From assembly GCA_964430265.1 (NCBI GenBank), contig CAYSEI010000003.1, positions 65,070 to 129,069 of the forward strand: a stretch of 64,000 bases of DNA. The letters are read 5' to 3'. Position numbers and translations under genes: made by a program. Source of the stretch: an uncultured Pseudomonadales bacterium (GTDB lineage: Bacteria; Patescibacteriota; Microgenomatia; UBA1400; CAYXSR01). The notes under the pieces were generated by a model. It made no database searches. It saw only the letters and a program-made list of their open reading frames with translations, and had not been told where the DNA came from. Of this stretch, positions 17,612-48,464 are shown in pieces (position 1 is the stretch's first letter; every line of letters begins with the position of its first letter).

Positions 17612-19579
17612 TTATTCCTTTTTTGGTGGTTTTGGTGGAGTTATTGATCCGCGAATATTACTCTCATTATTTTCTTTCTTCTCTATTTTTGGTTTAGGAG
17701 ATGTTTGGGGTATTGGAGAAGGTGAAGGGGGCGGGGTTGGTTTTGGAGAGGAAGATGAACTGGAAATTGAAGAACGAGGTTTTTTTTGAATATCATTGGG
17801 ATTGGAAGTTATTATTTTATGTTCTTCTTCTGATGCAACAACATTCATGGCAACGTGGTTTGCACCGGCAAAAAATATTCCGTGACCAACGTCAGCTGAC
17901 AAGAGTAGATTTTTTTCACCCTGTGAAAGATAAAAAGTTTTTGCTAGCAGATCAATTGCTGCAGGACTTTGTTTTAAAAGGATTTGAATTGAAGAGTTGG
18001 TAATAATTGCTTTTCCATGGTCGCTGTGTAAAAAGTCTTCAACGTCTTGTGTAATGGTTGTTAGACCCAGATTGTATTTTCTTGCACGTTTAGCAATACT
18101 GTAAAGAAAGTTTGCAGAGTCCTCATGTTGCATTAAGTACCATGCTTCATCAACGATTAAAATGCGCTTCTTGCGGTCACGTTTAATTTTTGTCCAAATG
18201 TAGTCCAAAATCATAAATATTGCTACCGGTCTTAGCTTATCTTCCAATTCCCGTGTTGAAAAAACAGTGAAAGGATTATTAAGTTTTACAGAGCTTTGCT
18301 GGTCAAAAACTCCGCGTAAAGAACCTTTAACAAATCGTTCCAGTTTAGCAGCCATTGTTTCTGACTCCTTTTTTTCCATCCCAACTAGAACCTTATAAAG
18401 ATCTTCCAATAATGGAGGTTGGTTGGAAAAGGTTGCAGGGTCTTGAGTAATACCTTTTTGCTTGTAGGTTAATACAAGTGCCTGGTCAAGAATGGCTTCT
18501 TCAGTGGGAGAAACTTCTCCCATAATAATTTTAAACAAGGCGTGTAAAGAAAGAATTTTTTGACTTAAAGCGCTTTCATTTTCTGATTCCATTCCGGATA
18601 AATCAAAAGGATTAATTTTTTGGGGAGAGTCAAGGGAGAAGTTAATATATTCGCCTCCCACAGACTCACAAAGGTCGCGGTATTCAGATTCCGGGTCAAT
18701 AACCAAAATTTCTGTTCCAAACATTAAGGAACGCAGAGCTTCAAGCTTAACCATGTAGCTTTTTCCGGCTCCCGACTTTGCCAAAACAAGCGTGTTTGCG
18801 TTTTCCAAAGAAAAGCGGTCAAATATTATTAATGATTCATTGTGTTCATTTATTCCGTATAAAATCCCTTTATTTGCTGTTAGTTGAGAAGAAGTAAAAG
18901 GAAAGGTTGTTGCTAATGAGGTTGTATCCATGTTTCTGGTAATGTTTAATTTGTCCTTGCAAGCTGGCAAAGTGCTTTTAAAAGCTTGTTCCATTTGCAA
19001 TGTGGCTGGTTTGGAAACTATCATTAAAGACCCAAGAGTTGACTGCATTTTTTGAGAGATAGAATTAAGGTCTTTTTTATTTTTTTCTGGTAGGGTTATA
19101 TACAAGCCCAACCTAAAGAACTTTTCTGAACCTTTGGCTAGTTGTTCCTGTAAAGAATGTGCGTCTTCCAATTTAACTTTGGTTTGAATATTGGCAATTC
19201 TGCCTCTTTCAAGATCTGTTTGAATCTCGGCTTCCATTTCTCCTATTTTTCTTTTTAGGTTTTCAAGAATACCTTTGCCCTCAATCGGATAAATAAACAT
19301 CGAGATATCCAAAGAATGGTCAAAGTTGATTAAAGGGGAAAGCCAATTTGCGTTAACAAATCTAGGATATCCAGCCACAAAGAAAGTTCGGAAAAAAGTG
19401 TTGGAAATTTTTAAATCATTAAAATCAACTTCAATAGCAGGGGGAGCAATAACGTCTTTTACTGAAACCATGCCTTCGGATAGTTTGTCAATTGTGGACT
19501 TTTTTTGCTCAGGTTTATTGTCTTTTTTTTCTTTTTTCTTTTTTGACAAAAATGGTAAGTCAAAAGGTAAGTCAACCAT
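17612..19579 (-). CDS. VirB4/TrbE/TraC-family type IV secretion ATPase with Pro/Ser-rich C-terminal tail
   Basis: Walker A LVLAKSGAGKSYMV, Walker B KRILIVDEAWYLM, N-terminal …FFVAGYPRFVNANWLSPL… region typical of VirB4/PrgJ-type ATPases; start trimmed to the Met at 19579; low-complexity SSSSSSPKPTPPPSPSPIP tail. Confidence 0.65.
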   Translation of the reverse strand: MVDLPFDLPFLSKKKKEKKDNKPEQKKSTIDKLSEGMVSVKDVIAPPAIEVDFNDLKISNTFFRTFFVAGYPRFVNANWLSPLINFDHSLDISMFIYPIEGKGILENLKRKIGEMEAEIQTDLERGRIANIQTKVKLEDAHSLQEQLAKGSEKFFRLGLYITLPEKNKKDLNSISQKMQSTLGSLMIVSKPATLQMEQAFKSTLPACKDKLNITRNMDTTSLATTFPFTSSQLTANKGILYGINEHNESLIIFDRFSLENANTLVLAKSGAGKSYMVKLEALRSLMFGTEILVIDPESEYRDLCESVGGEYINFSLDSPQKINPFDLSGMESENESALSQKILSLHALFKIIMGEVSPTEEAILDQALVLTYKQKGITQDPATFSNQPPLLEDLYKVLVGMEKKESETMAAKLERFVKGSLRGVFDQQSSVKLNNPFTVFSTRELEDKLRPVAIFMILDYIWTKIKRDRKKRILIVDEAWYLMQHEDSANFLYSIAKRARKYNLGLTTITQDVEDFLHSDHGKAIITNSSIQILLKQSPAAIDLLAKTFYLSQGEKNLLLSADVGHGIFFAGANHVAMNVVASEEEHKIITSNPNDIQKKPRSSISSSSSSPKPTPPPSPSPIPQTSPKPKIEKKENNESNIRGSITPPKPPKKE

Positions 19580-20276
19580 TTTGTTTTTCCTGTTGTTTTT
19601 TAATTGCTGCTTGAACAAGAGAGCGAGTATAGTTTTCAGAAGATGTAAATTTTTGACCTTCACTTTCCGGATTGTATATTTGGTAAAAAAGACGGATCAG
19701 CTCTTTTGTTTCCAGTTGCCGGCTGTTTAGTCCGATTCGGGTTAATTGTTTTATCATATGATCTCTTTTAGGATATAGATTGTTTTTGGCTTTTTCCAGT
19801 ATATAGTCAATTGGATAAGGAAGTTTTTGAGATTTTTTAAATGAAGAACTGATTGAGCTGGCAACTCCCAACTCAGTGGTTGAAAAAGGAATAATAACAT
19901 AAAAGTTTTTATCCAATATTTCTCTGTTTTTAACAGTTTCTTCAATAAACGAGTAATATTTTTTTAACCATTCTTTAATTTGTCTTGGCTTTTTTTTATT
20001 TATTTCATTGTCTAAAAGTTTAAGATAAGAAGAAATATCTTTTTGCTGAGAACGAATAAAAACTTGAATTGTAAAAGAAAGAGAATTTAAAAGCTCTCCG
20101 TATGCATAAATTGTTGCGTCCTGCTCTTTTTCTGATAAAAGACCAAAGTTAACAGCTGTTGTTTGTAAAATAATACAGCAGGAACCGTCTTTAAAAATAA
20201 CGATGTTGTCTTTTACATCTTCAATATCGAGGTGTTCTTGTGTGCTTGCTCTGATTGGAGTTTGGGCAGGGTTCAT
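19572..20276 (-). CDS. Hypothetical protein resembling the CagE/TrbE/VirB4 N-terminal domain (T4SS-associated)
   Basis: …IVIFKDGSCCIILQTTAVNFGLLSEKEQDATIYAYGELLNSLSFTIQVFIRSQ… resembles the N-terminal domain of VirB4/TraC; directly upstream of the ATPase gene with a 5-nt gap. Confidence 0.4.
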   Translation of the reverse strand: MNPAQTPIRASTQEHLDIEDVKDNIVIFKDGSCCIILQTTAVNFGLLSEKEQDATIYAYGELLNSLSFTIQVFIRSQQKDISSYLKLLDNEINKKKPRQIKEWLKKYYSFIEETVKNREILDKNFYVIIPFSTTELGVASSISSSFKKSQKLPYPIDYILEKAKNNLYPKRDHMIKQLTRIGLNSRQLETKELIRLFYQIYNPESEGQKFTSSENYTRSLVQAAIKKQQEKQNG

Positions 20277-20294: not shown

Positions 20295-21431
20295 TTAATA
20301 TAGCTCAATGTGCTCTTTTTTTCCTTCTTCTTTTATTTGTTTTTTCTTTTGAGCTTGTATACGTAATGGATCAATAATTTCTCCTTCTAACTCAAGAGTT
20401 ATTATATCAAATTCAAAGAGTTCATGTTCAGGAATTATTTTATAAGAACCGTTTTTTAATGGAGTGGCTGTATAAAATTGTCCCAGCTTGTTTGTTTTAA
20501 GCGCTCGGACAATATTGCCTTTTGAATCTTGAATTTCAATTAAAGCATTAGGGAGAATTTTGGATTCAGTGTCTAAAACCATGCCGACCAAAAGATTTGA
20601 AATGTCTGGTTTCTGTGGAATAGGCAGTTCCTTTTCAAATTCCGCTTCGGAAAACTTTTGGTCTTTTCTGCGGTTTTCTACTTTAAGAGGAGGTGTTAAA
20701 GGCTCTGCGGGTTTAACTTGTGGTTTCTTTTGAAATTTGGATTCGTGGTTGTTGATTAAAGGTTCTTCCCTGTCCTTTTTTATTTTAAGCGGTTTTTCCT
20801 TTTGTATTTCTACGGGCTTTTTTTGTACAAGAGATGTATAAACTGTTTGGTCTTTTTTCAGGTTTCTTTTGCTACTGAGCTTTCTTACTTTTACTTCAGG
20901 CTTTTGTTGTTTTTCTGTTTCTGGCTGAGTTTGTGGTCTTTTTTGTATTGAAACTTTTTGCGGTTGAATATTTTGTAAAAGATTGTTTATTCTGGCTAAT
21001 TGTTGGTCCTCTTCTCCGGCCCCGGCTTGTGCATCAGGAAGTGTTTTTAAAAAGCTTTGCAGATCTTTTGTTTGTTTTTTGTTTTTATCTTCTTTTATAT
21101 TTATTTTTTTATGATAGGTGAATTCAAAAGCGGGGGGAGTAATTGATTTCTTTTTCCAAATAAATTGTGTAGGATGGGTAATTGATTTGATAAAGTTTTT
21201 AAACCAAACGTCTAAAGGTCTTTCCTCTACCGGAAAAAAAGCCATGGCTATACCTGTAAACGCAGAGAGCACTATTAAAGGAATACGGAAAAATGAATGG
21301 ATGGGAAGAATATAAAAAAAGACGGCCACGGCAATGCCGCCGGCAAGTTCAAAAAACTGTTTTAAAGTCATGTCTCCAACCAAGCGGAACTCGTAAGAAG
21401 CAATATCTTGTGGAATTGGGTGTTGTTTCAT
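20295..21431 (-). CDS. Two-TM membrane protein, TcpE/PrgI(VirB3)-like N-terminus with K/Q-rich linker and C-terminal domain
   Basis: N-terminal …YEFRLVGDMTLKQFFELAGGIAVAVFFYILP… plus a second TM helix, a topology common to VirB3/TcpE proteins that precede VirB4; remainder lysine-rich with no homology recognised. Confidence 0.35.
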   Translation of the reverse strand: MKQHPIPQDIASYEFRLVGDMTLKQFFELAGGIAVAVFFYILPIHSFFRIPLIVLSAFTGIAMAFFPVEERPLDVWFKNFIKSITHPTQFIWKKKSITPPAFEFTYHKKINIKEDKNKKQTKDLQSFLKTLPDAQAGAGEEDQQLARINNLLQNIQPQKVSIQKRPQTQPETEKQQKPEVKVRKLSSKRNLKKDQTVYTSLVQKKPVEIQKEKPLKIKKDREEPLINNHESKFQKKPQVKPAEPLTPPLKVENRRKDQKFSEAEFEKELPIPQKPDISNLLVGMVLDTESKILPNALIEIQDSKGNIVRALKTNKLGQFYTATPLKNGSYKIIPEHELFEFDIITLELEGEIIDPLRIQAQKKKQIKEEGKKEHIELY

Positions 21432-21482: not shown

Positions 21483-22133
21483 TTACGGATTAAAAGTGTA
21501 TTCTATTTTGTAAGCAGAGGTATCAATACCAATTTCTTCCAATTTTTGCGGAGCTTCTGTTTTTATTTTTTCAATTTGCTCGTTCCTTGATAAAGGTGAG
21601 GTAATATCAATTTTCATTAAAACCCGGAATTGATCTTTAGAACCAAGATACTGAATCTTGTAGTTGTTTGTCTTTATTGGCATATTTGCAATCCATGGTT
21701 TTTCTTTCAGATTTTTTTGCAGTACTTCTCCTGCTGGATCGTCAAGGGTTGGTTTTGCAGTTTTAAAACTCCATTGATAAACTATATTTTGATTGTAGTA
21801 GACATCTATTTTATACTCAGTGCCTTCTTTAAAGTAATTAATTGGGGCGGCTTTCAAAGTTTGTTGATCCAGCCATTTCTTAAGCAGTTGAATTGATGGG
21901 GTGATTTGTATAGAGACTTTGTCTTGTTGTTCGCTGGTCAATTGTTTATGTAATGTAACCAAAATTGGTGTTTCTAGTTTTTCCAAAGTTGAATTTGCAG
22001 CCGGTTGTACTTCTTTTATTTGTGGTTTTTCTTCTATTAACTGATTGACAATTATTAATCCTAGAACTATAAGGGCAAGACTGGTTAAGAGCACGTATTT
22101 GGCTGGTGTTTTTTTAAATATATTTAATCGCAT
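21483..22133 (-). CDS. Hypothetical bitopic membrane protein (possible VirB8-like scaffold)
   Basis: N-terminal TM anchor (VLLTSLALIVLGLIIV) plus ~180-aa extracytoplasmic domain; assignment to VirB8 is by size, topology and context only. Confidence 0.3.
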   Translation of the reverse strand: MRLNIFKKTPAKYVLLTSLALIVLGLIIVNQLIEEKPQIKEVQPAANSTLEKLETPILVTLHKQLTSEQQDKVSIQITPSIQLLKKWLDQQTLKAAPINYFKEGTEYKIDVYYNQNIVYQWSFKTAKPTLDDPAGEVLQKNLKEKPWIANMPIKTNNYKIQYLGSKDQFRVLMKIDITSPLSRNEQIEKIKTEAPQKLEEIGIDTSAYKIEYTFNP

Positions 22134-25100
22134 AGGTGTACAATTGAATTAATTTCCAGTCCGGAATGAGTATCAAACCGGCCGTTTACAAAAGGATAAT
22201 GCTGTCTGTTTTTAGTACCAATGTTTGCTTCACAAGAAACCACTTCATCAGGATGAACTTCGCAAACCAAGCCAACATGGCAGAATCTGCACAAGCCAGT
22301 TGCACGGCGGACATCAAATAGTATCATGTCGCCTTCAGAAACTTCAGAAATATCGACATTTCCATTATTTTTAATTAGTTTTCCTCTATCTTCCCAATTC
22401 TGACTCCAGGGTCCAGGATTCCTGCCGGTAGCGCAAATATCGTCTGCGTCAGGATGTCCAGCTTCACGGTATGAAATACAAACTAAAGAATTACACCAGA
22501 CGCATTCACCTCGGGTGGTTGAATAGTTGTAGTAGTCGCTCCAGTCTGGGCCGCTTACACTACATTCTGGATGGTTCTTTTCCAGGCTATCTCTGATATT
22601 TTCTGCTATTTCTACAATGTCGTTGCAGTTGCCGTTGATAATAACAGAATCAGATCTGGTAATGCTTTCTCCTTCATATTCTGCAGTTGCTGTGACAGTG
22701 TTTCTGATTTTAGTATTGCTGGTTGTACCTGGTTTAGTTGTTGCTGTATAAGTTATTGTTAAACTGTTTCCTGTTTTGGAAAAGTCAAAATCCTCCCAGA
22801 AAAGAGTGTTTCCGTTTATGTTTGTTGGCTGTGGAGAAATAGAATTGGTATTGATATTTAAACTTTGTTCATCAAACGTGTCTTTAATTACTACATTTTG
22901 CACGTCATCAACTGAAGCGGAAATGTCAATAGTGTAAGTGATTGTTTCCCCGCCGCTGTTTACGGTTTTGGGACTAGATTGTTTGTTTACCTTTAAGTAT
23001 TTCTGTGTGCTTGGACCTGGTCCTCCGACGCCAAAATAGGGAACGTATGTAGAAGCATAAATAGTCATTACCAGCATTGCAAGACTGCTTAAACCAACAC
23101 CTGCTCCTACCATAGGGGTTACAATTTCCGCGCTGGAAACTCCAGTATTAACAACTTGATTAGCTGCTTTTGCTGCTGCATTTTTTGCTCCTTTAAACAT
23201 TCCAGTGATTCCGTTCCATATTTTCCCGCCAAATTTAATAATTGTAGCGGCAGCAGTGACAATAGGTACAATAATTGTCAAAGCAGGTAAAATAAAGTTC
23301 ATAAAAAAGAGAGCTATTGGTAGAAAAGGTAAAAGAATTTTAATTGCTTTTTTAACATCTTCGGGAAGCTTGTCCCAGGAGTGTTTTTTAATGAATCCGA
23401 TTGTATGTTTACCAATAAACTTAATTAGGCGGTAGCCTACTTCAAAAACGAGGGTGCCAATAATCCAGCCTATTGCTTGTCCTACCACAGGAATTGGAAT
23501 TACAGATCCGATTGCAGCTCCAATCGTTCCTCCAAGTCCTTCAACAGCAGCATAGCGTAGTAAAGACTTGAAACCTTCTTTTAAAAGTTTATCGGCTGCC
23601 TTTTCTAAACCTTTTTCCAGAAGCTTTTTAGCAACTTTTTTTCGTGCCCAATGCGAAACTTTATTTTTTACTGTTTTGCCAATTTTACCCGGCATCCATT
23701 TTCTTACTTTTTTGCGTGTTTTATTTAGTTTAGGATGTTTATCTAAAAATTTTGCTACTTTGACTCTTGTTTTGTAGCGCGGAGTTAAAAGCCAGCCGAC
23801 AGGTCTTTTTTTAATTTCTTCAACAACCTTATCTTGAACTTTAAATTTAATTTCGTAATATTTGTCAGTGACATACTGTTTTCCAAATACAAGCGGACGG
23901 AAGGGGTTGAGTTTGTTTGCTTGGTCAACAAAGGTGTAGCGCATATTATTAATGTGGGCGCGGACTTGTAAGGTTTTAAACAGGTTTCTGGTAAATAATT
24001 GACCGGAAAAATCCTGCGGAGTGATGTTTTCAAGTTTTTCCAGTTGGTCTGCAAATTCAAGTATTTTAGTAACTCTAGGATCCAAAGGGTTGAGTTGTTC
24101 AGTCAGTTTTATTCCTGCAAACTGATATCCTCTTTGAAGTGAAGTCGCCAAGTCGCGCAAAGTCTGTGCGTTGTGTCCTTTTAAAAACGCATGCAAAGCA
24201 AGATAATCAACGTCAATTTTTTCTGCCAAAACAAGAATTTGCGCGTCTGTTAATTTTCCCGGCTTTGAAAGAAAACTAACAGCATAGTCCTTTACTAGCT
24301 GTGGATCTGAAGATAAAAGGGCTTGTGAAATTGTTAGACCGGGAAGGCTTTCTCCAGATTCAAGCGCTTGGAAGTGAAATTCAAGAAATTCTTTTGTTTG
24401 AGGTTCAATTTTTTCGGAAAGTTCGCTTGCTGCACGGGAAATAACTTGGTCGTCAACTTTAAGAAGAGAAGAGGGAATATCATAGTCTGCTTTTCTGATA
24501 AAATCCTGACGGGCATTATTAATTATAACTTCTAGATTTTCGCGAGTTGTTTTGTGAATATTGTTTTCAATTTGGGTTTGTAAAAGACTGTCTTGCTGGT
24601 ATTGTTCCCAGAGGTTATGTTCAAGTCTGTTTATCTGAATTCCGGTTCTTTGTGAGATTATTTCTTCATTTTCTGTAGCATAATCTTGTAAGTGGTCAGC
24701 AAATTGAGATTGATAAATCTGTTTTTGTGTTGGTGTTTCTTCTTCAGAAAGGCTGGGTTTAATTTTTTCTGCAATTGTTTTTACTTTTTCCTGATAAACC
24801 CTAACGAATTCCTTTTCAATTCTGTTTCTCTTAGGTGGGGGTGCAACTATGGTTTTAAGATTTTCTTTCTTTGTTGTTTTAGTTTGGTGTTGGTCCCACT
24901 CTTTTTTTTGTTCAAAAACTTGTTCTTGATTAAAGTTCTGGAAATCTTGTCTATTTAAGGTCTGTGTAATTGTTTGTGATAGAAGTTTTTTTCCCTCGCT
25001 ATGCATGAAATATGCTTGGTTTGGATCTTGAATCTGGTTCAGCCTATTTATTGTGTTTTTTTGCGCTTTTTGCAGAGCTGCTTGGTGGGCTTGTTGAGCA

Positions 25101-25813
25101 GATATTCCAGGTTGTTGAATCTGTTTTTCAAATTCTTGGGTATATTCATTAAGAGCTGTTTCAGATATTAGAGTTGTATAGGATTGGCGGATTTTTTTTC
25201 TTGTTTGCAGGGTAATGACATCTTCTTGTTTTTGCAGCACCTCTTTTCCGGTTGTAGGGGTTCCGGTTGGTTTTTTTGCTTCCGCTTGTGCTTTTTTTTG
25301 ATTAAGGTTTTCATATATTTGGTCAAAGTAGGAATCAGTTGCTGTTTGGAGGTCTTTTTTTGTTTGTGCGTATGGATTAGCTGTGACTTTAAACCAATTT
25401 TCAATGTTGTTTTGTTCAGCCGTGTCAATCGTTCTTCTTACTACACTACGAATATCTGCTTGTTGTTGCGGGTTTTCTTTATCCAGTTGTTCCAAATAGT
25501 TTTCAAGTATTTCCTTGGGTGGCAGCTTGCCGGTTTCTTCAACAATTTCTGTTTGGTGAAAGGCAATAAAAGCATAAAGGGATTGCTTTAAAATATTTAA
25601 ATTATTAAGCGGATTTTGGGTTAAAACACTAAATTTATTTGCAGATACGTTTTCTCGAAAAATGTTGTTTAGAAATGTTTGGTACTGAGGGTTTTTAATG
25701 TATTCAAGTATTTGTTGACGGGCATTCGGGTTTCCTGTTTCCTGAAAGTCTGCAATTACAGAAAGGATTTGGTTTGTTTTTTGGACTAACTCTTGCGAAA
25801 CTGTTTCGGCCAT
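22124..25813 (-). CDS. Large multidomain envelope protein: N-terminal soluble region, polytopic membrane core, Ig-like (DUF11-type) domain, C-terminal CHAP peptidoglycan hydrolase domain
   Basis: Multiple TM helices around residues 750-930; …TITYTIDISASVDDVQNVVIKDTF… repeat-domain signature; C-terminal CHAP domain with the Cys (…CVWCNSLVCISYREAG…) and His (…CRFCHVGLVCEVH…) catalytic pair; architecture reminiscent of PrgK/TcpG T4SS cell-wall hydrolases. Confidence 0.6.
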   Translation of the reverse strand: MAETVSQELVQKTNQILSVIADFQETGNPNARQQILEYIKNPQYQTFLNNIFRENVSANKFSVLTQNPLNNLNILKQSLYAFIAFHQTEIVEETGKLPPKEILENYLEQLDKENPQQQADIRSVVRRTIDTAEQNNIENWFKVTANPYAQTKKDLQTATDSYFDQIYENLNQKKAQAEAKKPTGTPTTGKEVLQKQEDVITLQTRKKIRQSYTTLISETALNEYTQEFEKQIQQPGISAQQAHQAALQKAQKNTINRLNQIQDPNQAYFMHSEGKKLLSQTITQTLNRQDFQNFNQEQVFEQKKEWDQHQTKTTKKENLKTIVAPPPKRNRIEKEFVRVYQEKVKTIAEKIKPSLSEEETPTQKQIYQSQFADHLQDYATENEEIISQRTGIQINRLEHNLWEQYQQDSLLQTQIENNIHKTTRENLEVIINNARQDFIRKADYDIPSSLLKVDDQVISRAASELSEKIEPQTKEFLEFHFQALESGESLPGLTISQALLSSDPQLVKDYAVSFLSKPGKLTDAQILVLAEKIDVDYLALHAFLKGHNAQTLRDLATSLQRGYQFAGIKLTEQLNPLDPRVTKILEFADQLEKLENITPQDFSGQLFTRNLFKTLQVRAHINNMRYTFVDQANKLNPFRPLVFGKQYVTDKYYEIKFKVQDKVVEEIKKRPVGWLLTPRYKTRVKVAKFLDKHPKLNKTRKKVRKWMPGKIGKTVKNKVSHWARKKVAKKLLEKGLEKAADKLLKEGFKSLLRYAAVEGLGGTIGAAIGSVIPIPVVGQAIGWIIGTLVFEVGYRLIKFIGKHTIGFIKKHSWDKLPEDVKKAIKILLPFLPIALFFMNFILPALTIIVPIVTAAATIIKFGGKIWNGITGMFKGAKNAAAKAANQVVNTGVSSAEIVTPMVGAGVGLSSLAMLVMTIYASTYVPYFGVGGPGPSTQKYLKVNKQSSPKTVNSGGETITYTIDISASVDDVQNVVIKDTFDEQSLNINTNSISPQPTNINGNTLFWEDFDFSKTGNSLTITYTATTKPGTTSNTKIRNTVTATAEYEGESITRSDSVIINGNCNDIVEIAENIRDSLEKNHPECSVSGPDWSDYYNYSTTRGECVWCNSLVCISYREAGHPDADDICATGRNPGPWSQNWEDRGKLIKNNGNVDISEVSEGDMILFDVRRATGLCRFCHVGLVCEVHPDEVVSCEANIGTKNRQHYPFVNGRFDTHSGLEINSIVHLCD

Positions 25814-25859: not shown

Positions 25860-26612
25860 CTATTGCTTAATTTTTTCTAAAACTCTTCTTCCCAATATTT
25901 TTTGGGAAATAATTGTTAAGATTTTGGCTAACAATAAAAAAACAATGTCAATGCTAATGGTTGCTAACAAAGAATAGTTTAGGCTTTGTAAGATATTTAA
26001 AAAGAAGTCGCGTGTTTGTTGATTTAAGCTTACTTTGATTGTTATGCCCCCGATTTGTAAAGCAACTACCAGGATAATTAATAAAACAATGGGATAAATT
26101 GCTTGCTCCAGGTCTTTTTTTGAAGAAAACATGGTGTTGGAAACAACAAAAAGGGCATAGCTTGACAAGCCAAAAAGTAAATAATACTGCCAGTTGTTAT
26201 TTAAAAATAAAGAAGGATTTTTAATTATTGGTAGAATTTGCAAGTAAAAAAGGACGCTAATGAGTACTAATCCAAGAAAAATTGGAGACACTCCAATAAT
26301 GGTTCTTCTTATTGGATCGGATTTGGCTATTTTAATCCCGCCAATTCTTATTTCATTACTGTTTTCTTTTTTCTGCGGCATAAAATTAAACTCTCCGGTT
26401 CTTACTCCAAGAATTTCAGCAACTAACATGTGGGAGACTTCATGAATTACAGTACCGGGAAGCAGAAGAACTGCCATTAAGGAAATGCTTAGTTGTTTGC
26501 TTTTGGTTAATAAGTAAAAAAACAAATAGAGTTTTTTCTGGTAGTTAGTTGATACAAGATAAAGAACAAAAAGTTGCAGGATGAATAAAAAAAACCAGAT
26601 AAGTAAGCTCAT
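25860..26612 (-). CDS. Polytopic membrane protein with HExxH motif (putative intramembrane metalloprotease)
   Basis: HEVSHMLVAEILG within a TM segment; no LDG motif seen, so an M50 assignment is uncertain. Confidence 0.3.
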   Translation of the reverse strand: MSLLIWFFLFILQLFVLYLVSTNYQKKLYLFFYLLTKSKQLSISLMAVLLLPGTVIHEVSHMLVAEILGVRTGEFNFMPQKKENSNEIRIGGIKIAKSDPIRRTIIGVSPIFLGLVLISVLFYLQILPIIKNPSLFLNNNWQYYLLFGLSSYALFVVSNTMFSSKKDLEQAIYPIVLLIILVVALQIGGITIKVSLNQQTRDFFLNILQSLNYSLLATISIDIVFLLLAKILTIISQKILGRRVLEKIKQ

Positions 26613-26630: not shown

Positions 26631-27806
26631 CTATTTTTCATATATGAAATAAAAAGCAAAAGCTGTTAGTAAAAGTCCTTGCTGTAAAGTGTAAAAATAA
26701 TGATCAAACAAAGATAGTAAAAGCCAGCTTAGCAAATATATTAAAACAAAAGGATTTTTTTCCACTTTTAAAAAGGCTCTTTTAAATGATTTTGTAAGAA
26801 AACAAATAAAAATTATCAGTCCTGTAACTCCCATTTCCGAAGATAACAATAAAAAGAAATTATGTACGGGCTGAAAAAAATTAATATTTGCTGGACGCAA
26901 ATAATTAGGCAGTATAACCAAAAAATTATTTAATCCTGCACCAAATAAAATATTATCCTTTATTATTTGAAAAGAAGCCTTTATAAGAGTTAGGCGTTTA
27001 TAAAAAGAATCTAAAATTGTTTCTGATAAATAATCGTAAAAAGCTATTGCAATTCCCACAAATACAGCTGCAAACACTAAGCCAATCTTTTTGTTTTTAT
27101 TAAATATATAAAAAACCAAAACTAAAAAAGACAAGAAAATTGCCGGCAAAGAAAAAGTTAAAACTAAAGCTGTTTCAATAATAAACAATATAAACCACTG
27201 CCATAATTTTTTAAGTCTTTTAATATTTAAAGCAAGTGTAAAAGCCAAAAAAGCAGCTAAAATGTTGGAGTGGGGAAATGTTCCCATAGAAACTGCTCTT
27301 AAAGCGCCATTGGGAAGAATAATTTTTTTAATATCAGGTGAATTTATTGTGAATGGTTGTTCACCAAAAGGTACATAAGAAAGAACAGAACCGCCTTTTA
27401 AAAACTGTGCGATTGCCAAAAGTGATTGAGCTAAAGCAGAAAAAAATAGTATTTGTACAATTTTTTTTTGCTTAATCTTTTTAGTTCTTAAATAATAAAA
27501 AAGTAGGATAATTTCAGAAAACTTTAGTGCTTTATAAAATGCAATTCCTTTTCTTTGGGCAAATAAAATAAAGAAAAAAGGAAGGATAGTAAACAAAACT
27601 TTTTTTGGGTCTTTAAATATTTTTTTAAAACTGGAAAAATTAAGAATAAAAAGAAAAAAGATTAAGATATCAGTTAAATATATAGTAGGAATTAAATAGT
27701 CCTGATATATTCCCAAAACCAAAGCAGAAGAATTTTTAAAGTGCAAAGCTAAGTTGGAAGGAAGAAAAAAAATAAGTAGGTATAAAACAACAGTTTTAAA
27801 TTTCAT
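26631..27806 (-). CDS. Polytopic membrane protein (O-antigen ligase/Wzy-like polymerase candidate)
   Basis: 391 aa, ~10 predicted TM helices with a larger loop near the C-terminal third; family call from topology only. Confidence 0.3.
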   Translation of the reverse strand: MKFKTVVLYLLIFFLPSNLALHFKNSSALVLGIYQDYLIPTIYLTDILIFFLFILNFSSFKKIFKDPKKVLFTILPFFFILFAQRKGIAFYKALKFSEIILLFYYLRTKKIKQKKIVQILFFSALAQSLLAIAQFLKGGSVLSYVPFGEQPFTINSPDIKKIILPNGALRAVSMGTFPHSNILAAFLAFTLALNIKRLKKLWQWFILFIIETALVLTFSLPAIFLSFLVLVFYIFNKNKKIGLVFAAVFVGIAIAFYDYLSETILDSFYKRLTLIKASFQIIKDNILFGAGLNNFLVILPNYLRPANINFFQPVHNFFLLLSSEMGVTGLIIFICFLTKSFKRAFLKVEKNPFVLIYLLSWLLLSLFDHYFYTLQQGLLLTAFAFYFIYEK

Positions 27807-28260: not shown

Positions 28261-31200
28261 TTATTTTGTTACCCATTCTGGATGTTCACGTTGCTTGTAT
28301 TTCTCTAACAGGGGTTTAAGTGCTTCAATATCTTTTATTTCTAGGTGAACTCCTTCTTTTAACAAATCCTTAAGTCTTGTTGCTTTGTTTTCAGAAGAAA
28401 AATCTATTTCAAGTCTTTCTGCAGCTTCTTGAAAAGATTGGCACTGGTCAATTTCTTGGTCAAAGCGTAATTGATAACTGTTTTCTGGTAACCCGAGAAA
28501 GAAAAAAGTGCGGTCTAAATATTCTCTTAATTTTTGGCAGGAAGCAGCAAAATCATTTTTTGTATCTACGGGATTGTTTTCTTCTTTATGTCCATAGAGA
28601 TACAGAAGTCTTAGATAGTACCTAATGTAAGTTTCAAAATGCATCTGCATATTTTCTTTTGTGAGTTCAGCATTAGGTGGTAGGGGTTGTTTTAGAATAC
28701 TGTCAATTCCTTTGTCTGAAATTCTTTCTCGATCTTCAAATTGTAAATATGAATAATGCATTGGTAAACCTTCCCAAATAGCGGCTAGATTTCTTCTAGG
28801 ATCATCAAGTGCCATCAAATATCTACCTCTTCTCCATAGATCTTTTGGCTTTAGTTTTTTTTCTGATGCTTTTTTTCTAATGCTTTTTCTTAATCTCTTG
28901 TTAAGATCAATCTCTTCTGCTAATCTGTAATCTGGATTGAATCCTCCTGCCTCAGAATATAATGAACTACGATAAACGCCACAACCTAATAAACTTTTTC
29001 TTTGTGTGTATTGAAGATTCATGATCTCTCTAAATCTTTCCACAACGTGTAAGAGAGGTATATGTTCGTATATTTCTGGAGAAAAATCTGCTCGAAAATT
29101 ATATTGTTCTATTTGTGGAGATTGTTCGGAAAGCTTTAGTACACGATTGATATATTCAGGGTTTCTTGCAAAAGCATCTGCGCCTCCAGTTTTCATGAGT
29201 AGATTTGCCTTTTCCTCTGAATTTTTTCTTTTTGAATTTCTGAGAACAACAAGGTCTGCGGGAAGGGTGTATACTAATCCCATTCTAACGCCACCTTTGA
29301 CTGTTACTGTTTTATCTCCAAATTTAACTTCTTCGGCTTTTCCTGAAGGAGGAAAATTAAAAGTCTTTTTTATTGTATGAATATTATATCTTTGATAATC
29401 AGGGTGTTCTTTTAATTCTTGGATTTTTTCATACGTTTCATCAAATTCAACATCTTTATTTGGTCTGTTGATCAATACGATTATTTCAAAAAGATCTGGA
29501 TCTAAGGGTTCTCCATTTTCAGTAAATTGTTCAACCCAGTCTTTTAAAGTGTCTTGAATATTTTGTTCCTCTAGATAAGCAGGGATTACAATTGAGAAAC
29601 GACACTCTTCCTTCATTGGTGGAAGCTGAGAATTTATTTGTTTAAGCTCGGCAAAAAAACTTCTTTCTCCGCCATTTAATCTATATAAAGTTTTTAGTAC
29701 TCTTGGATTTGAACTTTCTAATGTCCATCTTTCTTTAAGCCTGTTTAAGTAATTGTCTTGTGCCTGAAGCCTTTCTTTAATAAGTTTTTCTGGAGTTTGA
29801 TGGGAGGATTCTCTTTTATCTAATCGTTCTTGTTTTTTTTTACCAGTTTTGTCAGTATTTTCAAAGCAAACAGCAGAAACATTATCGCCTGAATAAATAC
29901 CAGATTCTTTATTTGTTAGTGTGTTGACTATTTGTTCTGGTGTTTCCATTTCTGAAATATGTTGTTCTAAATGTTTAGCATATATTTCTCTTGTTATTTC
30001 TCTTCTTGCTTCAGGAGTTAATTTTCTCCATTCTTGACTTATGTTTCTTTCGTTTAATATTTGTCTATAAATTTCTTCTAAGGTTCTTGCTGCTTTTTCT
30101 TTGGGTTCTATTCCTTCCCAGACCCCATCGCAACACAATAAGACCCTCTCTCCTTTTTTAATTTCAATTGAAAATGTAGAAATTTTATTTTCGTCTAATT
30201 TTCTCCCTTTTTCTATTGCAGCTAGAATTCCGCTTCTTTGTGGGTGTGTAATCATTTCGGTAGGAGTAATAACTCCTTGAATTGTCTGTTTCCATACCAA
30301 GCTATCATCATCAGTTAATAATTCAACTTTTCCGTCCTTTCCTATTTTATATCCACGAGTGTCTCCTATATTTGCCCCAACAACGTTATTTCCTTGCTGT
30401 AATGAAATGGTTATTGTTGATCCGCTTCCATGTGGGACTGCAGAAAGATTATTAGTGATACTATCTGCTTTAATCAAAGCTTGTTTAAGGAGGTCTTCAT
30501 TAATTGAATATCCTTTTTCCACTTTGCTAACTAAATTTTGGACAGTAGCAAGTACAATTGCTGAAGAATGAATTTCTCCTCCATGGTAACCACCCATTCC
30601 GTCTGCAACTATGCTGATATTATCAATCTTACCTTCTTTTTTAAGCTTATTATATTTTCCCTCCAGTTCTTTAGCATTAATTTGCAGTTGATCTTCAAGA
30701 GTTTTTATATCTTCAGCATTTAAAATAAAGTTTCCGTCGACAAATATTCCATCTTCATCAGTACTCCTTCCTCCTTTTTCAGTTTTTCCGGCAGTTGTTT
30801 CTGTATAAACAGCATTTTCTTCGATTCGTACTTCTGTTTCAAAGCTAACAGTTGATGGGAGATTCTCCTTTGGCTGTATTCTTAGTTTATCTTGAATTTG
30901 TTTTATTTGCTCAACAATTGGTGTCTCTGATAAGCTTACTTTTGTTTTTCTCGCTATTTCTTTAATCCTTTTTTTTGGAGAAAGTCTTCTTAATTCTTGC
31001 TTTTCTGCTTCAGAGATCTCTAATGAATTATATAGTTCTTCATAAGTTGGAATATTTTTGATTGCTTCATACTCTGGATATTCAAATTTTTTTGATTTTA
31101 TCTCGTGTTCTGGATAACTTGTTTTTGAAACAACAAATTCCTGATATTCAGGGTATTCTTGATAATAGTCAGGATATTCTTCTGCGTACTCGTCTTCATA

Positions 31201-34200
31201 AATTGGAGAGACTAAGCTAGGAGAATGTTGTTCTTTTTCTCCCATTTCCAATGCTCTTCTGCCAGGGCGGAAAATGCTTGGCGGCCATGCTGTTATTTCC
31301 TGTATTTTCTGCGGCAATGCAAAAGATATGCTTTTAAGTTGTTCTTCAACAATTTTGGTTACAGGTCTGACCAAATCAATTGCTGCTTTTGGCACTTCTA
31401 TAATATTAGGGACTGTTTCTTCTGTTACGATTTCTCCTACACTGTCAGTGCCTTTGTATGTTGCAACCGGCATAATATCCGTAACTCCTTCTGCTGCGTC
31501 TTTGATCTGGGCAATTTCTACATAAGCGCCCAAAAATTTGCCGTCTTCAAATAGCTGTGCAACCGGGCTTTCCGCAGGAATACGTGCAACTCCGCTGGCA
31601 TTAAATTCAAAGACAAAAGTGCGGGAAGTATCGGCACTGGATGGTGTTATTATTAATTTTGCTGCATTTTGTTTTACAAACTGACCAACATTTAAACTAG
31701 TTCCCGGTAGTTGTGTTGAAGTGGCGTCTCCAAGATCTCTAAATGACTGAATGACATTACCAGCTTCGTCAACTTTGGGAATTGCCAATCCCAGCTCTGA
31801 ATATTCATAAGGGCCGTCCGGGGTCATATTGTCCCACCAACCCCTTCTTATTACACTTTTAACACCCTTGGCATTATGTATCCATTCACTTATTTTTTTG
31901 GTTACCCTAGTTGTTGTTTCGCCGTCTTGAATATATCTTTTTCTGCTTGAGAAGTCGAGTAAACCCGATTTCTGAACCTGCTGGCGGATTACAGCTTGAT
32001 TAACTATTTCTCCATCAGAATTAAGCTGGATGTTTTTTAATAAAGGAATGTCTTCATTATTAGTTAACAAAGAATAAGTATCTTTTCCAGTTGCTTGTAA
32101 GTGTGTTCCTTCCGGAATTTCCAAAGATGCTTGTTCGTGGCCAATTCTTAATCTTTCAAGAGCATCATAAGCTTTTTCAGTTGGCTCTTGGATTACTTCG
32201 GGTCTGCTGATTGTAGCAACACTTGTTCTTAAAGTACTGACGCCGTGATCTTCCAAAGTATTTTTAATTGCATCAATATCTTGGCTGATATTAGTTATTT
32301 TTTCTCCGTTGGGCAGAGTGATGTCAACTGTGTCTGTTGCTTCGTTAATTTCAAAGCTTGAACCTTCGGGCAGAAAAGCTTTTTCTCCATCATCAAGCGC
32401 CATTGCAACAGTTGGTCCCAATTCCGGGGGAGGGGCAGCTTCTTTAAGGATTCCGAGTTTTTGCAGACCTTTTTCAATTAAAGGGACAGTCTCAAGTTCA
32501 TGTCCAAGAACTTTTTCCCTAAACAAGTGGACGCCTTCCTGGGCCAAAGCGCTGATTACAAATCCTTGAGCGGCGCGGCTCACTGCTCTTAGTCCGGAAC
32601 GTTTAACCCGCCACCTGTTAAATGATTTGTTAATTTCCTTTATTCCCTGAATTTCTGCTGTATCAACGTCATTGCTGACTCCGTCCAAAAGCTTATTTCG
32701 GTGGTAATCGGTTAAATCAGCTATTAAATTATCCGGTTCAATAGTTATTTCATCGTGTTCTTTACTGTATTGCTGCAGTCTGACTTCTGCTTCGGCCAGA
32801 TTGGAAACCAAATCTGATTTTTTACCTTCACTTTGCTCCAGCCCAACAATTAAAGTGTCAATTTCATGTTCATTATTTAAAGAAATTCTAGCTTTTGCCT
32901 CGGCAATAATGGCGCTTGCATTAATAACATCTTGTTCAGTCAGTCTGTCTTTTTGCAAAACTGCATCTAAGGGCTGTAAGATTTCTGAATCAATTTCTTT
33001 CGTGTTGTACAAAAAGCGGGTGAATTCCTGCGTTGGAGTTTTTTCAGGTATTTCCCTTTCCTGAGCAGACCAGCGTGAAACCGCTGTTCTTTCCACTTTT
33101 AGTCTGCCCATTTCATGGAAAAAGCCTCTTATTCCGCCGACAGCGGTAGTAAATACGGGCATTGTTCCAGCAGAAACTAGGCTTGCAAGTTCCTGGTTAC
33201 CGGTCAGTCTTAAGGTAAGGCCGGCAAAACGGGCCGGCAATTTTGCTGCTGAGGTAACCCCAGCTGCAATCGCAGACAAAGTTGTTTCGTGTAGTCCGAC
33301 GTTAATAGTTTTACCCAGGATACTTAATTCTGGTTTATTTTTAATAATTTTTTCCACTGCTTGCTCGGTAATATTTCTTTCTTGTTTTGTTCTAGCGCCA
33401 AAATGTGCTGTTCCTAAAGCAACTTGTAGTTCAGTTTCAGACAATTCTCCTAAGCATTGTTCAAGAGTCTCTTGAAGATCTCCTTCAATTCGGGCGCGTC
33501 CGGCTTGGTGGTGCAGCCAGGTTTTCATTTCATTGGCTGTTTCCAAAAGGGTGTCTCCGTAAAAAAGGGAGGAGGGAAGTAATTCAGGTTTTTTCTTAGC
33601 AATTTCCCGGGCATAATCATGGACTTTGCTGATAAAGCCTTCTTCTGTCATACCTTGTGTAGGAATCTCAAACCCTTCAATTGTTTGCGCATCGGGCATT
33701 AATCCTGATGCCGCATATTCAATTGCCAAGTTTCTTAGACTATCAACAATCCCTTTATGAAACGTATCAGCTTCAGGATTTAGAAGAACAACTCTTTCTC
33801 CGCTGGAAGTGATGAGTTCTTTTTTCTTAGCAAATATATCTTCCGCCTCAGGCAGGAAACGCTGTGCCATTTCTGTCATTGCTTTTCTGTGGGCTTCCAT
33901 CCCGGCCTGACCAGCAAAAATGTTTTCTTCTTGCTCAATTCTTTTTTGTGCGTCTGCAGTTGCCCTAAAGTCAAAATATTCTTTGGCCAAATCATGCTTC
34001 CAGACTCGAACCGCAAATTCCTTTGCCCGCTTAAAAAATCCAGCTTCTTTGTATGCTTCAACAGCGCCAGTAAAAACACTGCCCATTTTATTTAGGAATC
34101 CTGAGGAATTTTTAAAATGTTTTCTTACATAAGAAAGTACACCTTTCTGACTACCGACGGTTTCAGTTCTTTCAAGCATCCCCATATCTCTTGCCATTTC

Positions 34201-46253: not shown

Positions 46254-47237
46254 ATGCTGAAAAAAGAAATTTTAAAGTTTAAAAACCAGTTTGATCCGCT
46301 GTTAAAGAAAAAACTAAAAAAGGAAGAAAGTCTTTTTTTTAAAGAATATTCACTGCTTATTAGAGAGATTGAAAGAGTAACCTTTTCTGGAGGAAAACGG
46401 ATCAGGCCATTGTTGGTATGTTGGGGGTATCAAGCAGTTGGTGGAGGAAATTTTGCAGATGTAGTTGATGCATGCTTTAGTATTGAACTTTTTCATACAT
46501 TTGCTTTGATACACGATGATATTATGGATAAATCAGAAAAACGTAGAGGTAAAATAACTACTTGGAAAAAAATAGGAGTTGATAAAGCAATTTTGACAGG
46601 AGACTTGTGTTTAAGTTTAGCGGATGAATACTTTCCTCAAAAAGCAAATAAAAAATATTTTAATTTATTAAAAAAAGAAACCTGTCTGGGTCAGTATTTG
46701 GATATTCAGAACAATAAAGAATTTAGTGAAAAACAAGTAAGAAAAATTTTAGATTTTAAAACTGCAAAATATACAATTGTCCGTCCTTTGCAGATTGGTG
46801 CTAGTTTTAAAACGCAAGATGATAAAATTATGAAGCTTTTTTTGAAATATGGTAAAAGAATGGGAACAGCATTTCAAATAAAAGATGATTTATTGGGTGT
46901 TTTTGGAGAAGATAATAAAACAGGCAAGCCAGTTGGAGAAGATATTAGTGAAGGGAAAAAAACCTTGCTGATTGCAAAGTTAAAAAAAATAGGAAAAAGT
47001 ATGAAAAAAAAGGAGAAAGAAAAATTTTCAAATTTGTTTAACTGTAAAAAAAGATTAAACAAGAGTGAACAGAAATTCATTATTAACCTTTTTAAAAAAT
47101 ATAATATAGACAAAGAAGTAATTGCAGAAATGCAAAAAGAAGCAGAACAGGCAAGAAAGATAATCAACAATTCGGATATAAAAGAAAAAGAAAAACTTTT
47201 ACAAATGACTCAATATCTTATTAATAGAGAACATTAA
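46254..47237 (+). CDS. Short-chain trans-polyprenyl diphosphate synthase (GGPP/FPP synthase type)
   Basis: First DDxxD motif LIHDDIMD and second FQIKDDLLG; 327 aa. Confidence 0.85.
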   Translation: MLKKEILKFKNQFDPLLKKKLKKEESLFFKEYSLLIREIERVTFSGGKRIRPLLVCWGYQAVGGGNFADVVDACFSIELFHTFALIHDDIMDKSEKRRGKITTWKKIGVDKAILTGDLCLSLADEYFPQKANKKYFNLLKKETCLGQYLDIQNNKEFSEKQVRKILDFKTAKYTIVRPLQIGASFKTQDDKIMKLFLKYGKRMGTAFQIKDDLLGVFGEDNKTGKPVGEDISEGKKTLLIAKLKKIGKSMKKKEKEKFSNLFNCKKRLNKSEQKFIINLFKKYNIDKEVIAEMQKEAEQARKIINNSDIKEKEKLLQMTQYLINREH

Positions 47238-47780: not shown

Positions 47781-47824
47781 AAGCAAATTCGAATGATTTT
47801 TCTTTTTTTTACGACAGATATAGT

Positions 47825-48166: not shown

Positions 48167-48167
48167 A

Positions 48168-48464
48168 ATGGGAAAATATGAACGATATCGTAGTGAACGA
48201 TTATTTAGGGCAAGTTTTTCCCGGGATGGATTTGAAAATGGTTTAGGATTAGCTCATAGAACAGGATTACAGAAAGAGATGATTACCATTCCCAAAAGTG
48301 TTTGGGGGATACAAAGGTCTTCGCCTACTGAAAGTTTAGGCGAGGAGAAAATAATTGAAATGAGAGAAGATGTTGAAGCAATGTTAAAGCTAAGAAGCAA
48401 TGGCCATAATTTGGATGGACTTTATACTATTAAAGATTTTGAAGAAGTAGGAATATTGGAATGA
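48168..48464 (+). CDS. Hypothetical protein (98 aa)
   Basis: ORF translationally coupled with idi (overlap ATGA at 48461); no family recognised. Confidence 0.4.
   Translation: MGKYERYRSERLFRASFSRDGFENGLGLAHRTGLQKEMITIPKSVWGIQRSSPTESLGEEKIIEMREDVEAMLKLRSNGHNLDGLYTIKDFEEVGILE

Follow-up and report, generated by a model that had tools for sequence, protein, structure and literature searches.

How does a type IV secretion system (T4SS) pass the cell wall in the Microgenomatia, and which protein would cut the wall for it? Patescibacteria, or the Candidate Phyla Radiation (CPR), keep a T4SS of the Gram-positive type beside the replication origin. In the Microgenomatia, a monoderm-type T4SS near dnaA and dnaN has been described, VirB6 homologues are 'scarce' and VirB1 homologues are rarely linked to virB4 (PMC12102498). 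The question is raised here by a stretch of 64,000 nucleotides, referred to as the window, from an assembly deposited as that of an uncultured Pseudomonadales bacterium, with the GTDB lineage Patescibacteriota; Microgenomatia; UBA1400; CAYXSR01 (GCA_964430265.1, contig CAYSEI010000003.1, positions 65,070 to 129,069 of the forward strand). On the minus strand, at 22124–25813 (stop codon at 22124–22126), the window holds a complete open reading frame (ORF) for a T4SS-associated membrane protein of 1229 residues, here called the scaffold. A preliminary description of the sequence had pointed to a membrane protein of this length with a CHAP domain at its end; the protein is confirmed, and its gene shares a T4SS operon of the Gram-positive type with those for PrgI, a TrsD-like protein and a VirB4 of the CD1110 family. 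The answer argued for below is that the scaffold is probably a membrane-anchored, putatively extracytoplasmic cysteine peptidase or amidase of the CHAP branch, which would open peptidoglycan for the T4SS and so have a function like that of PrgK or TraG.

A Divergent CHAP Domain

The preliminary description had placed the CHAP domain at 22124–22560, that is, at residues 1086–1229 plus the stop codon. A CHAP-type domain at the C-terminus is borne out by the CHAP matches of its relatives, by profile–profile alignment with hhalign, by Foldseek and by invariant Cys, His, Glu and Asn residues. The span contains the catalytic core, but the folded domain begins earlier, at about residue 1060 (nucleotide 22636), and opens with a helical extension in the AlphaFold2 (AF2) models. 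The divergent CHAP domain, of the papain-like cysteine peptidase type, is taken here as residues 1060–1229 (22127–22636, minus strand), on the combined evidence of Pfam, hhalign, AF2, Foldseek and PHROGs.

The scaffold is identical to a single NCBI protein (P0001) without named relatives, and a word-indexed search of 5.8 billion proteins retrieved only itself with the full-length sequence and no relatives with the C-terminal domain. The single domain also found nothing in the GTDB genomes, and an NCBIfam scan of it gave nothing. When 1.84 billion representative proteins were scanned exhaustively with HMMER, eight genuine relatives emerged (P0002–P0008 and P0010), with identities of 36–44%; two further matches, P0009 and P0011, were dropped because they proved to be artefacts of low-complexity repeats. 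The family is represented by a nine-sequence alignment of the CHAP-like domain (A1), and its hidden Markov model also finds an orthologous domain at a genome locus, L001 (E = 9e-22).

With the last 191 residues as the query, CHAP (PF05257) is the only sensible Pfam match (E = 0.0019, 19.1 bits, positions 6–81 of the 81 in the profile), and over all scans of the window domain the values are E = 0.0015–0.0019, 19.1–19.4 bits and positions 5–81. The Pfam check proposed in the preliminary description came out in two ways: the window copy stays under the gathering score (19 versus 26 bits), whereas the L001 domain passes it (32.1 bits, E = 1.6e-7) and seven of the nine family members match CHAP (best E = 1.2e-5). 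Two of the nine match NLPC_P60 (PF00877) weakly (best E = 0.001), four match an 'endolysin' family of PHROGs (best E = 1.3e-6), and other members match endolysin or tail-lysin families. When the family profile, with L001 included, was compared by hhalign with a nine-sequence profile of PrgK/SsaA-type CHAP domains, the probability was 83% in local mode (E = 9e-6) and 17% in global mode; this reference profile is narrow because a database search seeded with PrgK returned only seven close CHAP sequences. Since the window sequence is below the gathering score, its membership in the CHAP family rests on the orthologues, on profile–profile alignment and on the predicted fold. Judged by sequence, the window domain is an outlier within a CHAP-related family.

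The Predicted Fold

The AF2 model of residues 1060–1229, built on A1, has a mean predicted local distance difference test (pLDDT) score of 79.3 and a predicted TM-score (pTM) of 0.80; helices are followed by a beta-sheet, with one low-confidence loop. The leading Foldseek matches in the PDB were MepS (NlpC/P60), Ly7917, which is a CHAP lysin (probability 0.98), the amidase domains, of CHAP type, in glutathionylspermidine (Gsp) and trypanothione synthetases, and Trichomonas NlpC proteins. Lower in rank came other papain-like peptidases, among them papain and the C39 domains of PCAT transporters. In the BFVD, four matches reached E values under 0.001. The best of them (E = 4.8e-5) has no name, another is labelled LysM, and the remaining two are entered as 'CHAP domain containing protein' (E = 2.5e-4 and 9.2e-4, probability 1.0). 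Further CHAP proteins, lysins and endolysins follow among the lower BFVD matches. By its modelled fold, the window domain can still be recognised as belonging, at a distance, to the CHAP branch of the papain-like NlpC/P60–CHAP superfamily.

The Predicted Catalytic Residues

The residues invariant in the nine sequences of A1 are Cys1107, Leu1110, Val1111, Tyr1115, Ser1159, Gly1161, Asp1162, Phe1166, His1179, Gly1181, Glu1195, Asn1197 and Ile1224. They fit the landmarks of the CHAP and NlpC/P60 families, namely a nucleophile helix (C-x-x-L-V....Y), a G-D-x-x-x-F strand, H-x-G and E-x-N. Both motifs quoted in the preliminary description, ...RGECVWCNSLVCISYREAGHP... for the Cys and ...CRFCHVGLVCEVHPDE... 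for the His, were found in the ORF. The alignment puts a Cys and a His at the conserved catalytic positions and in the canonical order, followed by Glu-x-Asn; which Cys is concerned had not been specified. Of the three cysteines in the quoted Cys motif, Cys1107 is the conserved one.

The predicted nucleophile is Cys1107 (22493–22495, minus strand), in W-C-N-S-L-V and the second Cys of CVWC. It is favoured because it is invariant in all 10 family members, because the P0010 domain has no Cys other than its equivalent and L001 (F-W-C-T-W at this site) has kept this one of the pair alone, and because it is the first residue of a helix in both AF2 models (H48–58 and H183–193). The N-terminus of a helix is where a papain-like nucleophile is expected. 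The first Cys of this C-x-x-C, Cys1104 (22502–22504, minus strand), is a Cys in eight of the 10 members and was ruled out as the nucleophile because it is replaced in the other two, by Met in P0010 and by Leu in L001.

The predicted catalytic His, His1179 (22277–22279, minus strand; C-H-V-G-L-V), is invariant and lies in a strand of the AF2 model (E114–128). Glu1195 and Asn1197, which are 16 and 18 residues past it and likewise invariant, would be the third residue of the triad and a putative oxyanion-hole residue (codons of Glu1195-Ala-Asn1197 at 22223–22231, minus strand).

This assignment was compared with CHAP domains of known residues. Those of PrgK, the CHAP protein of plasmid pCF10, are Cys766 and His828 (PMC11323569); they were located, together with Glu845-x-Asn847, in the translated pCF10 sequence, and PrgK matches solved CHAP structures with E values of 1e-15 to 1e-22. 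The triad of the Staphylococcus saprophyticus CHAP structure 2K3A is Cys57/His109/Glu126, with Glu126 following the His just as Glu134 and Asn136 form the E-x-N after the His in CHAPK (PMC4126393); counting residues in 2K3A reproduces this triad. In the hhalign alignment of A1 with the PrgK CHAP domain, His1179 falls on His828 and Glu1195-Ala-Asn1197 on Glu845-Met-Asn847. The register is kept when the profile is extended with L001, and it thereby also brings His1179 onto His109 of 2K3A. The spacing from His to Glu is 16 residues in the window domain and 17 in 2K3A, CHAPK and PrgK, and that from Cys to His is 72 as against 52–63.

All 11 cysteines of the 1229-residue protein lie within the last 170 residues, and the Cys count of the CHAP domain is odd in nine of the 10 family members, which, along with the C-x-x-C in eight of the 10, invites the speculation that there are several disulfides and one free or redox-gated thiol. 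Cys1104-x-x-Cys1107, at the N-terminus of its helix, could then act as a redox switch by which the nucleophile is masked, with Cys1104 as a possible redox partner of Cys1107.

The Scaffold and Its Stalk

The CHAP domain is preceded by an Ig-like beta-sandwich, which covers residues 940–1059 (22637–22996, minus strand) and is related to DUF11/DUF7507 and to the CnaA/B-type domains of pilins. An Ig-like domain ahead of the catalytic part had been part of the preliminary description, and it stands on three kinds of evidence. The window copy has a weak Pfam match to DUF7507 (E = 0.014), and DUF11, DUF7927 or DUF7507 is matched in about 10 of the 19 scaffold orthologues. In an AF2 model of the ectodomain (residues 925–1229, mean pLDDT 78), residues 940–1059 form an all-beta domain at a pLDDT of about 90–97. 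Foldseek, finally, matches this domain to the Ig-like domains (CnaA/CnaB-type) of the pilins EbpB, BcpA, LrpA and RrgB and of Cna-type adhesins, with E values down to 4.5e-7.

In the 19 scaffold orthologues, which are otherwise 12–31% identical, four positions never vary: Lys944, Tyr960, Asp978 and Asn1038. Intramolecular isopeptide bonds in pilins have a residue pattern of Lys, Asn and an acidic residue (Asp or Glu). The invariance of Lys944, Asp978 and Asn1038, and the match of the fold to isopeptide-bonded pilin domains of Gram-positive bacteria, suggest that the stalk is held by a Lys–Asn isopeptide bond of this kind.

Upstream of the stalk lies a transmembrane (TM) cluster at residues 759–924 (23042–23539, minus strand), which is homologous across the scaffold orthologues, some of which match Gly-zipper families in this region. 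A Kyte–Doolittle scan of the window protein gives hydrophobic segments at 759–792, 822–863 and 897–924, or some four to five helices, preceded by a Lys-rich segment. The remaining N-terminal part of about 758 residues (23540–25813, minus strand) is rich in Gln, Lys and Glu and presumed to be cytoplasmic. It has no match to any Pfam or NCBIfam family, and a jackhmmer search with the N-terminal 940 residues against the six-frame ORFs of 58 related loci returned nothing; partial similarity to P0004, P0005 and L002 appeared only after iteration.

Exchangeable Heads

In 13 related loci, the position of the scaffold is taken by an ORF of 946–1370 residues with a TM cluster about two-thirds along, followed by a single-TM ORF, PrgI, a TrsD-like protein and VirB4; the single-TM ORF (160–360 residues) comes after the scaffold in all the related loci. 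Scaffold orthologues at the equivalent place in the operon are found in L001, L002, L006, L011, L013, L014, L016, L020, L032 and P0002, P0004, P0005, P0006, P0007 and P0008. The order of the operon is shared with L001 and with three metagenomic CHAP-bearing relatives, P0004 (L060), P0006 (L062) and P0008 (L063), the last of which also has dnaN, dnaA and rnpA on its contig.

A full-length iterative profile search on preselected large ORFs showed that the homology between scaffolds spans approximately residues 700–1059, that is, the TM cluster and the Ig-like domain. In L002, L006, L011, L013, L014, L016, L020 and L032, the alignment stops where the Ig-like domain ends, and the tails past it, of 150–240 residues, are of three types: Peptidase_M23, a module with an HExxH motif, or CHAP-like. 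Peptidase_M23 occurs in eight of the 19 full-length scaffolds; it is over the Pfam threshold in L011, L013, L019, L020 and L032 (36–67 bits) and weak in L002. The HExxH head, which belongs to no Pfam family, forms the C-terminal 190–240 or so residues of the scaffolds in L006 (4059–7169), L016 (2739–6479) and L031 (3089–7009), where it shows the pattern HE(A/T/L)GH...(E/D)(A/F)(F/A)E(A/S) and is presumably an undescribed zinc peptidase module. Among 45 genome loci, only L001 has a CHAP-like head. No SLT or lysozyme-type Pfam match was found in the window protein or in its 19 orthologues.

It is this use of M23 or CHAP, one excluding the other, at a single position of a T4SS scaffold that provides the strongest contextual argument for a head that acts on peptidoglycan. 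Both peptidase modules, CHAP and M23/LytM, are combined in PrgK (PMC11323569).

The junction between the Ig-like domain and the head (about 22625–22650 in the window, minus strand) reads differently by type of head. Ahead of the M23 and HExxH heads (tails of L002 to L035) it reads (I/L)x(I/L/F)G(D/N/E)xP...C, and ahead of the CHAP heads it reads I(I/L)N(S/N/G)xC. A conserved hinge such as this could be the recombination point at which heads are exchanged.

Loci of another type also exist. L008, L012, L024, L033 and L042 lack the scaffold and have, farther upstream of VirB4, a protein of 450–570 residues with 5–7 TM segments, adjoined in the first four by a Cys-rich protein of 360–790 residues. 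Such loci may represent an alternative arrangement of membrane and wall components in the Microgenomatia.

The Secretion Operon and Its Surroundings

The genes of the operon lie on one strand, the minus strand, in the order scaffold, single-TM protein, PrgI/VirB3, TrsD-like protein and VirB4, with short or overlapping junctions. The single-TM protein (21483–22133; 216 residues, TM segment at 9–35, a weak match to Big_5) overlaps the stop codon region of the scaffold by 10 nucleotides, and the only homologue of it that was retrieved is in L001. The PrgI/VirB3-like protein (20295–21431) scores 40.1 bits with Pfam PrgI (E = 5.4e-10), where the gathering score is 27. At 378 residues it is unusually long and carries a C-terminal beta-sandwich like CarboxypepD_reg, which is also present in L062.

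The TrsD/TraC-like protein (19572–20276, 234 residues) matches the NCBIfam family TrsD (NF041427) with E = 4e-4 and also, with E = 2.8e-8, the N-terminal part of VirB4_plasma. A split-off N-terminus of VirB4 was considered for this ORF; a TrsD/TraC-like protein explains it better, given NF041427 and the annotation of its orthologues as PF26593 (TraC-like). The VirB4-like ATPase itself (17612–19663, 683 residues) belongs to the CD1110 family (NCBIfam NF045971, E = 3e-116; 389 bits, cutoff 325) and has a TraG P-loop match in Pfam. It is 56–70% identical to the VirB4 proteins of 45 loci in metagenome-assembled genomes (Beckwith-, Chisholm-, Shapiro-, Gottesman-, Woese- and Pacebacteria and 'Patescibacteria group') and about 28% identical to VirB4 proteins of the type found in integrative and conjugative elements of Clostridia. 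These identities mark the source as a Patescibacterium of the Microgenomatia type.

Beyond VirB4 lie dnaN and dnaA, and because these genes adjoin it, the operon is taken to be chromosomal and proximal to oriC. This agrees with the oriC-near monoderm-type T4SS described for the Microgenomatia (PMC12102498).

On the other side, directly upstream of the scaffold, a polytopic protein of 250 residues (25860–26612, minus strand) has five hydrophobic segments, one of them with the motif HEVSH, and a weak match to Peptidase_M50 (E = 0.0017), as would a site-2 protease. This ORF is kept at the same place in L001, L002 and L006. It had been a candidate for the PrgH/VirB6 equivalent, which was rejected in favour of a site-2-protease-like protein on account of the HExxH in a TM segment and the M50 match. 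By its position it may belong to the T4SS, with the scaffold or some other component of the system as a possible substrate for processing.

Other Features of the Window

Next to the T4SS block and a Wzy_C-like ORF (26631–27806), just upstream of them, lies a giant ORF of 2967 residues (28261–37164, minus strand) with a PP2C phosphatase-like domain and a weak glycosyltransferase-2 match. An ORF of 494 residues some 16 kb from the operon (42095–43579, minus strand) matches TrbC/VirB2 pilins weakly (E = 0.0013) and could be a pilin-like component. On the plus strand, there are a polyprenyl synthetase, a mevalonate block (two GHMP kinases and a diphosphomevalonate decarboxylase) and a SpoIID-domain protein (46254–51870, 53802–55517 and 58966–59400). 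The SpoIID-domain protein is an indication that the organism remodels a cell wall of its own. A transfer-messenger RNA and two tRNAs are also present in the window.

Comparison with Known Systems

The closest functional parallel is the group of VirB1-like hydrolases formed by PrgK (pCF10, Enterococcus faecalis), TraG (pIP501), TrsG and CD419, from T4SSs of the Gram-positive (MPF-FATA) type. As with these proteins, the gene of the scaffold stands in a T4SS operon alongside PrgI/VirB3 and a VirB4 of the CD1110 type. Like PrgK, it has a Lys-rich, presumably cytoplasmic N-terminal part, a membrane anchor and a C-terminal CHAP domain, here taken to be extracytoplasmic, with Cys1107, His1179, Glu1195 and Asn1197 in register with the Cys766, His828, Glu845 and Asn847 of PrgK. 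As in the PrgK–PrgL order of pCF10, a single-TM protein of around 200 residues (216 here) follows the scaffold; PrgL is VirB8-like. The M23/LytM module of PrgK has its counterpart in the alternative head of the orthologous Microgenomatia scaffolds. The differences are as clear. The scaffold has a polytopic TM cluster where PrgK has one helix, an N-terminal region of about 750 residues where that of PrgK has about 250, and a pilin-type Ig stalk; its gene precedes prgI and virB4 instead of following them; and its operon is chromosomal, proximal to oriC and off mobile elements. By hhalign, similarity to PrgK is confined to the core of the CHAP domain, itself sub-threshold for Pfam, with nothing outside it. 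The analogy with Gram-positive T4SSs drawn in the preliminary description consequently holds as a likeness of function but not as orthology: PrgK and TraG are multi-hydrolases anchored by a single TM segment and not fusions to a polytopic scaffold of some 900 residues.

Among the CHAP lysins of staphylococci and phages, the window domain resembles CHAPK of LysK (4CSH), 2K3A, S. aureus SAOUHSC_02979 (5T1Q) and Ly7917 (5D76) in its alpha+beta fold of the papain type, where the Cys heads a helix and the His sits in a beta-strand, in the Glu-x-Asn 16–17 residues past the His, and in the G-D-x-x-x-F strand ahead of it. It differs from them in its longer Cys–His spacing, in its identity of only about 15–18% in structural alignments, in its N-terminal helical extension and low-confidence loop, and in its 11 cysteines, including the C-x-x-C at the nucleophile. 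Unlike CHAPK, it lacks the calcium-binding lobe motif. The NlpC/P60 DL-endopeptidases (MepS/Spr, CwlO, Orf14/CTn7-Orf16 of Tn916-like elements) belong to the same clan; the block G-D-l-v-f-F...s-H-V-G-i is matched, and MepS is the top Foldseek match in the PDB. Elements of the Tn916 type use an NlpC/P60-type enzyme for conjugation. The window domain departs from this family in its Cys motif, W-C-N-S instead of D-C-S-G, and in its third residue, which is the Glu-x-Asn of CHAP domains and not the His typical of NlpC/P60.

The scaffold also recalls VirB6 and PrgH, as a polytopic membrane protein encoded beside VirB3 and VirB4. A divergent stand-in for VirB6 is expected somewhere in the operon because VirB6 homologues are scarce in the Microgenomatia (PMC12102498). 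The TM region of the scaffold was tried in this role and rejected: none of the 19 scaffold orthologues has a VirB6, TrbL or PrgH match in Pfam, and hhalign against the PrgH family (pCF10 and Clostridia loci) gives a probability of 0.04%.

Self Wall, Host Wall or No Wall?

In the proposed mechanism, the scaffold would anchor beside the translocon and keep the peptidase on the outer side of the membrane, at a distance of roughly the length of the stalk. The head is placed outside because it comes after both the final TM segment and an Ig domain resembling those of pilins, because it is rich in Cys, and because orthologues carry M23 heads in its place; the confinement of all 11 cysteines to this domain and their odd number in nine of the 10 members would fit a set of disulfide bonds and a single unpaired thiol. 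His1179 and Glu1195 would activate the thiolate of Cys1107, which, with Asn1197 as the oxyanion-hole residue, would cleave an amide bond of peptidoglycan in the stem peptide, in the cross-bridge or between MurNAc and L-Ala. The result would be a local gap in the wall for the secretion channel or pilus, as with the VirB1-class hydrolases PrgK and TraG(pIP501) in the T4SSs of Gram-positive bacteria. CHAP would be an exchangeable head, as an M23 or HExxH module sits at exactly the equivalent place in orthologous scaffolds.

A number of results weigh against this proposal. The window domain fails the Pfam gathering score, and for the full-length protein no CHAP match is listed at all. A search of PDB sequences with the single sequence returned only a spurious endoglucanase (E = 1.7); with the A1 profile, the matches were weak (E = 0.1–0.8) and none was significant, six of the seven being NlpC/P60 wall hydrolases, including a Tn916-like conjugative hydrolase, which align over some 30 residues in the GD..F..HVG block only. 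The Foldseek matches in the PDB are also weak, with a best E of 2e-3, none below 0.001 and TM-scores of 0.3–0.5. In the hhalign alignment, the Cys region is ambiguous, Cys1104 being paired with the CHAP Cys by way of a three-residue gap; the ungapped register of C1107-N-S-L-V with C766-T-W-Y-V of PrgK is equally compatible. The topology comes from hydrophobicity alone, and whether there are four or five TM helices is uncertain. Each scaffold has a single enzymatic module and no SLT or muramidase domain, unlike PrgK and TraG. Finally, the CHAP domain of PrgK showed no detectable hydrolysis of peptidoglycan in vitro despite its intact Cys766 and His828, but down-regulated the muramidase domain and dimerised in a redox-dependent manner (PMC11323569), so an intact triad is no proof that the wall is punched.

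The behaviour of PrgK also leads to one of the alternatives, in which the CHAP fold does not hydrolyse anything but binds peptidoglycan, regulates or oligomerises, and so positions or dimerises the scaffold, possibly via redox disulfides. The many cysteines of the domain and the location of its nucleophile within a C-x-x-C would suit such a role. However, the scaffold contains no other hydrolase domain to be regulated, the Cys, His, Glu and Asn never change among family members whose identity is otherwise only 31–39%, and the M23 heads pass Pfam and keep, as judged by eye, the metal-ligand motifs H-x-x-x-D and H-x-H, whereas the LytM of PrgK is degenerate. A non-hydrolytic head is very unlikely. 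It is harder to set aside the idea, raised already in the preliminary description, of an unchanged enzyme that attacks the wall of a host or partner instead of that of the producer. The Ig stalk would present the peptidase at the interface between episymbiont and host for uptake or delivery by the T4SS, which is compatible with remodelling of the self wall, and the CHAP, M23 and HExxH heads would track the wall chemistry of the hosts. The exchange of heads between homologous scaffolds is a pattern typical of diversifying or host-specific selection, and the CHAP head is rare (eight relatives in the representative proteins, one of the 45 related loci). In its fold, the domain resembles the endolysins and tail lysins of phages, enzymes directed at foreign walls, and Patescibacteria T4SS genes have been reported to be essential for epibiotic growth in the one lineage tested, with the T4SS proposed to act on hosts (PMC12102498). 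Yet nothing in the sequence tells a self wall from a foreign one; the ectodomain, of about 300 residues (one Ig-like domain and the enzyme), is membrane-anchored and of short reach; and the wall functions encoded in the window (SpoIID, Wzy_C-like) mean that the producer has a wall of its own to cross. A host wall as the target appears unlikely, though it is to be reckoned with.

The substrate might also be something other than peptidoglycan. A papain-like peptidase could process a VirB2-like pilin or secreted substrates in the manner of C39, or be a toxin or a transglutaminase-like head. The lower Foldseek ranks do contain the C39 domains and papain, the window does have a weakly TrbC/VirB2-like ORF, and the adjacent M50-like protease hints at proteolytic processing. 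Against these stand the best matches in sequence and structure, which are consistently to CHAP, NlpC/P60 and endolysins and not to C39, and the E-x-N 16 residues past the His, which is typical of CHAP (PMC4126393); the M23 heads, moreover, are classical peptidoglycan endopeptidases. Such a substrate is extremely unlikely. A more far-reaching proposal joins several of these threads: the scaffold would be an undescribed core part of the Microgenomatia T4SS, with an isopeptide-stabilised stalk and an exchangeable wall-peptidase 'drill head' working on host peptidoglycan, the type of head would set the host range, and a C1104-x-x-C1107 disulfide would keep the CHAP domain off until it is deployed. 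As a whole, this proposal seems quite unlikely. The reading in which a CHAP-branch enzyme opens peptidoglycan for its own T4SS remains the probable one.

Implications for the Microgenomatia

That a CHAP hydrolase can be a component of a Gram-positive-type T4SS is already known, and the CHAP assignment alone is expected. In the literature searched (PMC12102498, PMC11323569), there is no description of a polytopic scaffold of this kind, large and quickly evolving, with a stalk like that of pilins and a conserved place in the T4SS operons of the Microgenomatia, nor of an exchange of heads among CHAP, M23 and HExxH, nor of a CHAP subfamily as extremely divergent and as rare as this one. The locus points to the seat of the putative wall-cutting function in the Microgenomatia, which would be the end of a scaffold that standard profiles miss. 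Cys1107 and His1179 are concrete targets for mutation, and the series of heads offers a natural comparison by which a breach of the bacterium's own wall may be distinguished from a breach of the host wall. The same series can be used to ask whether the type of head correlates with the wall chemistry of the host.

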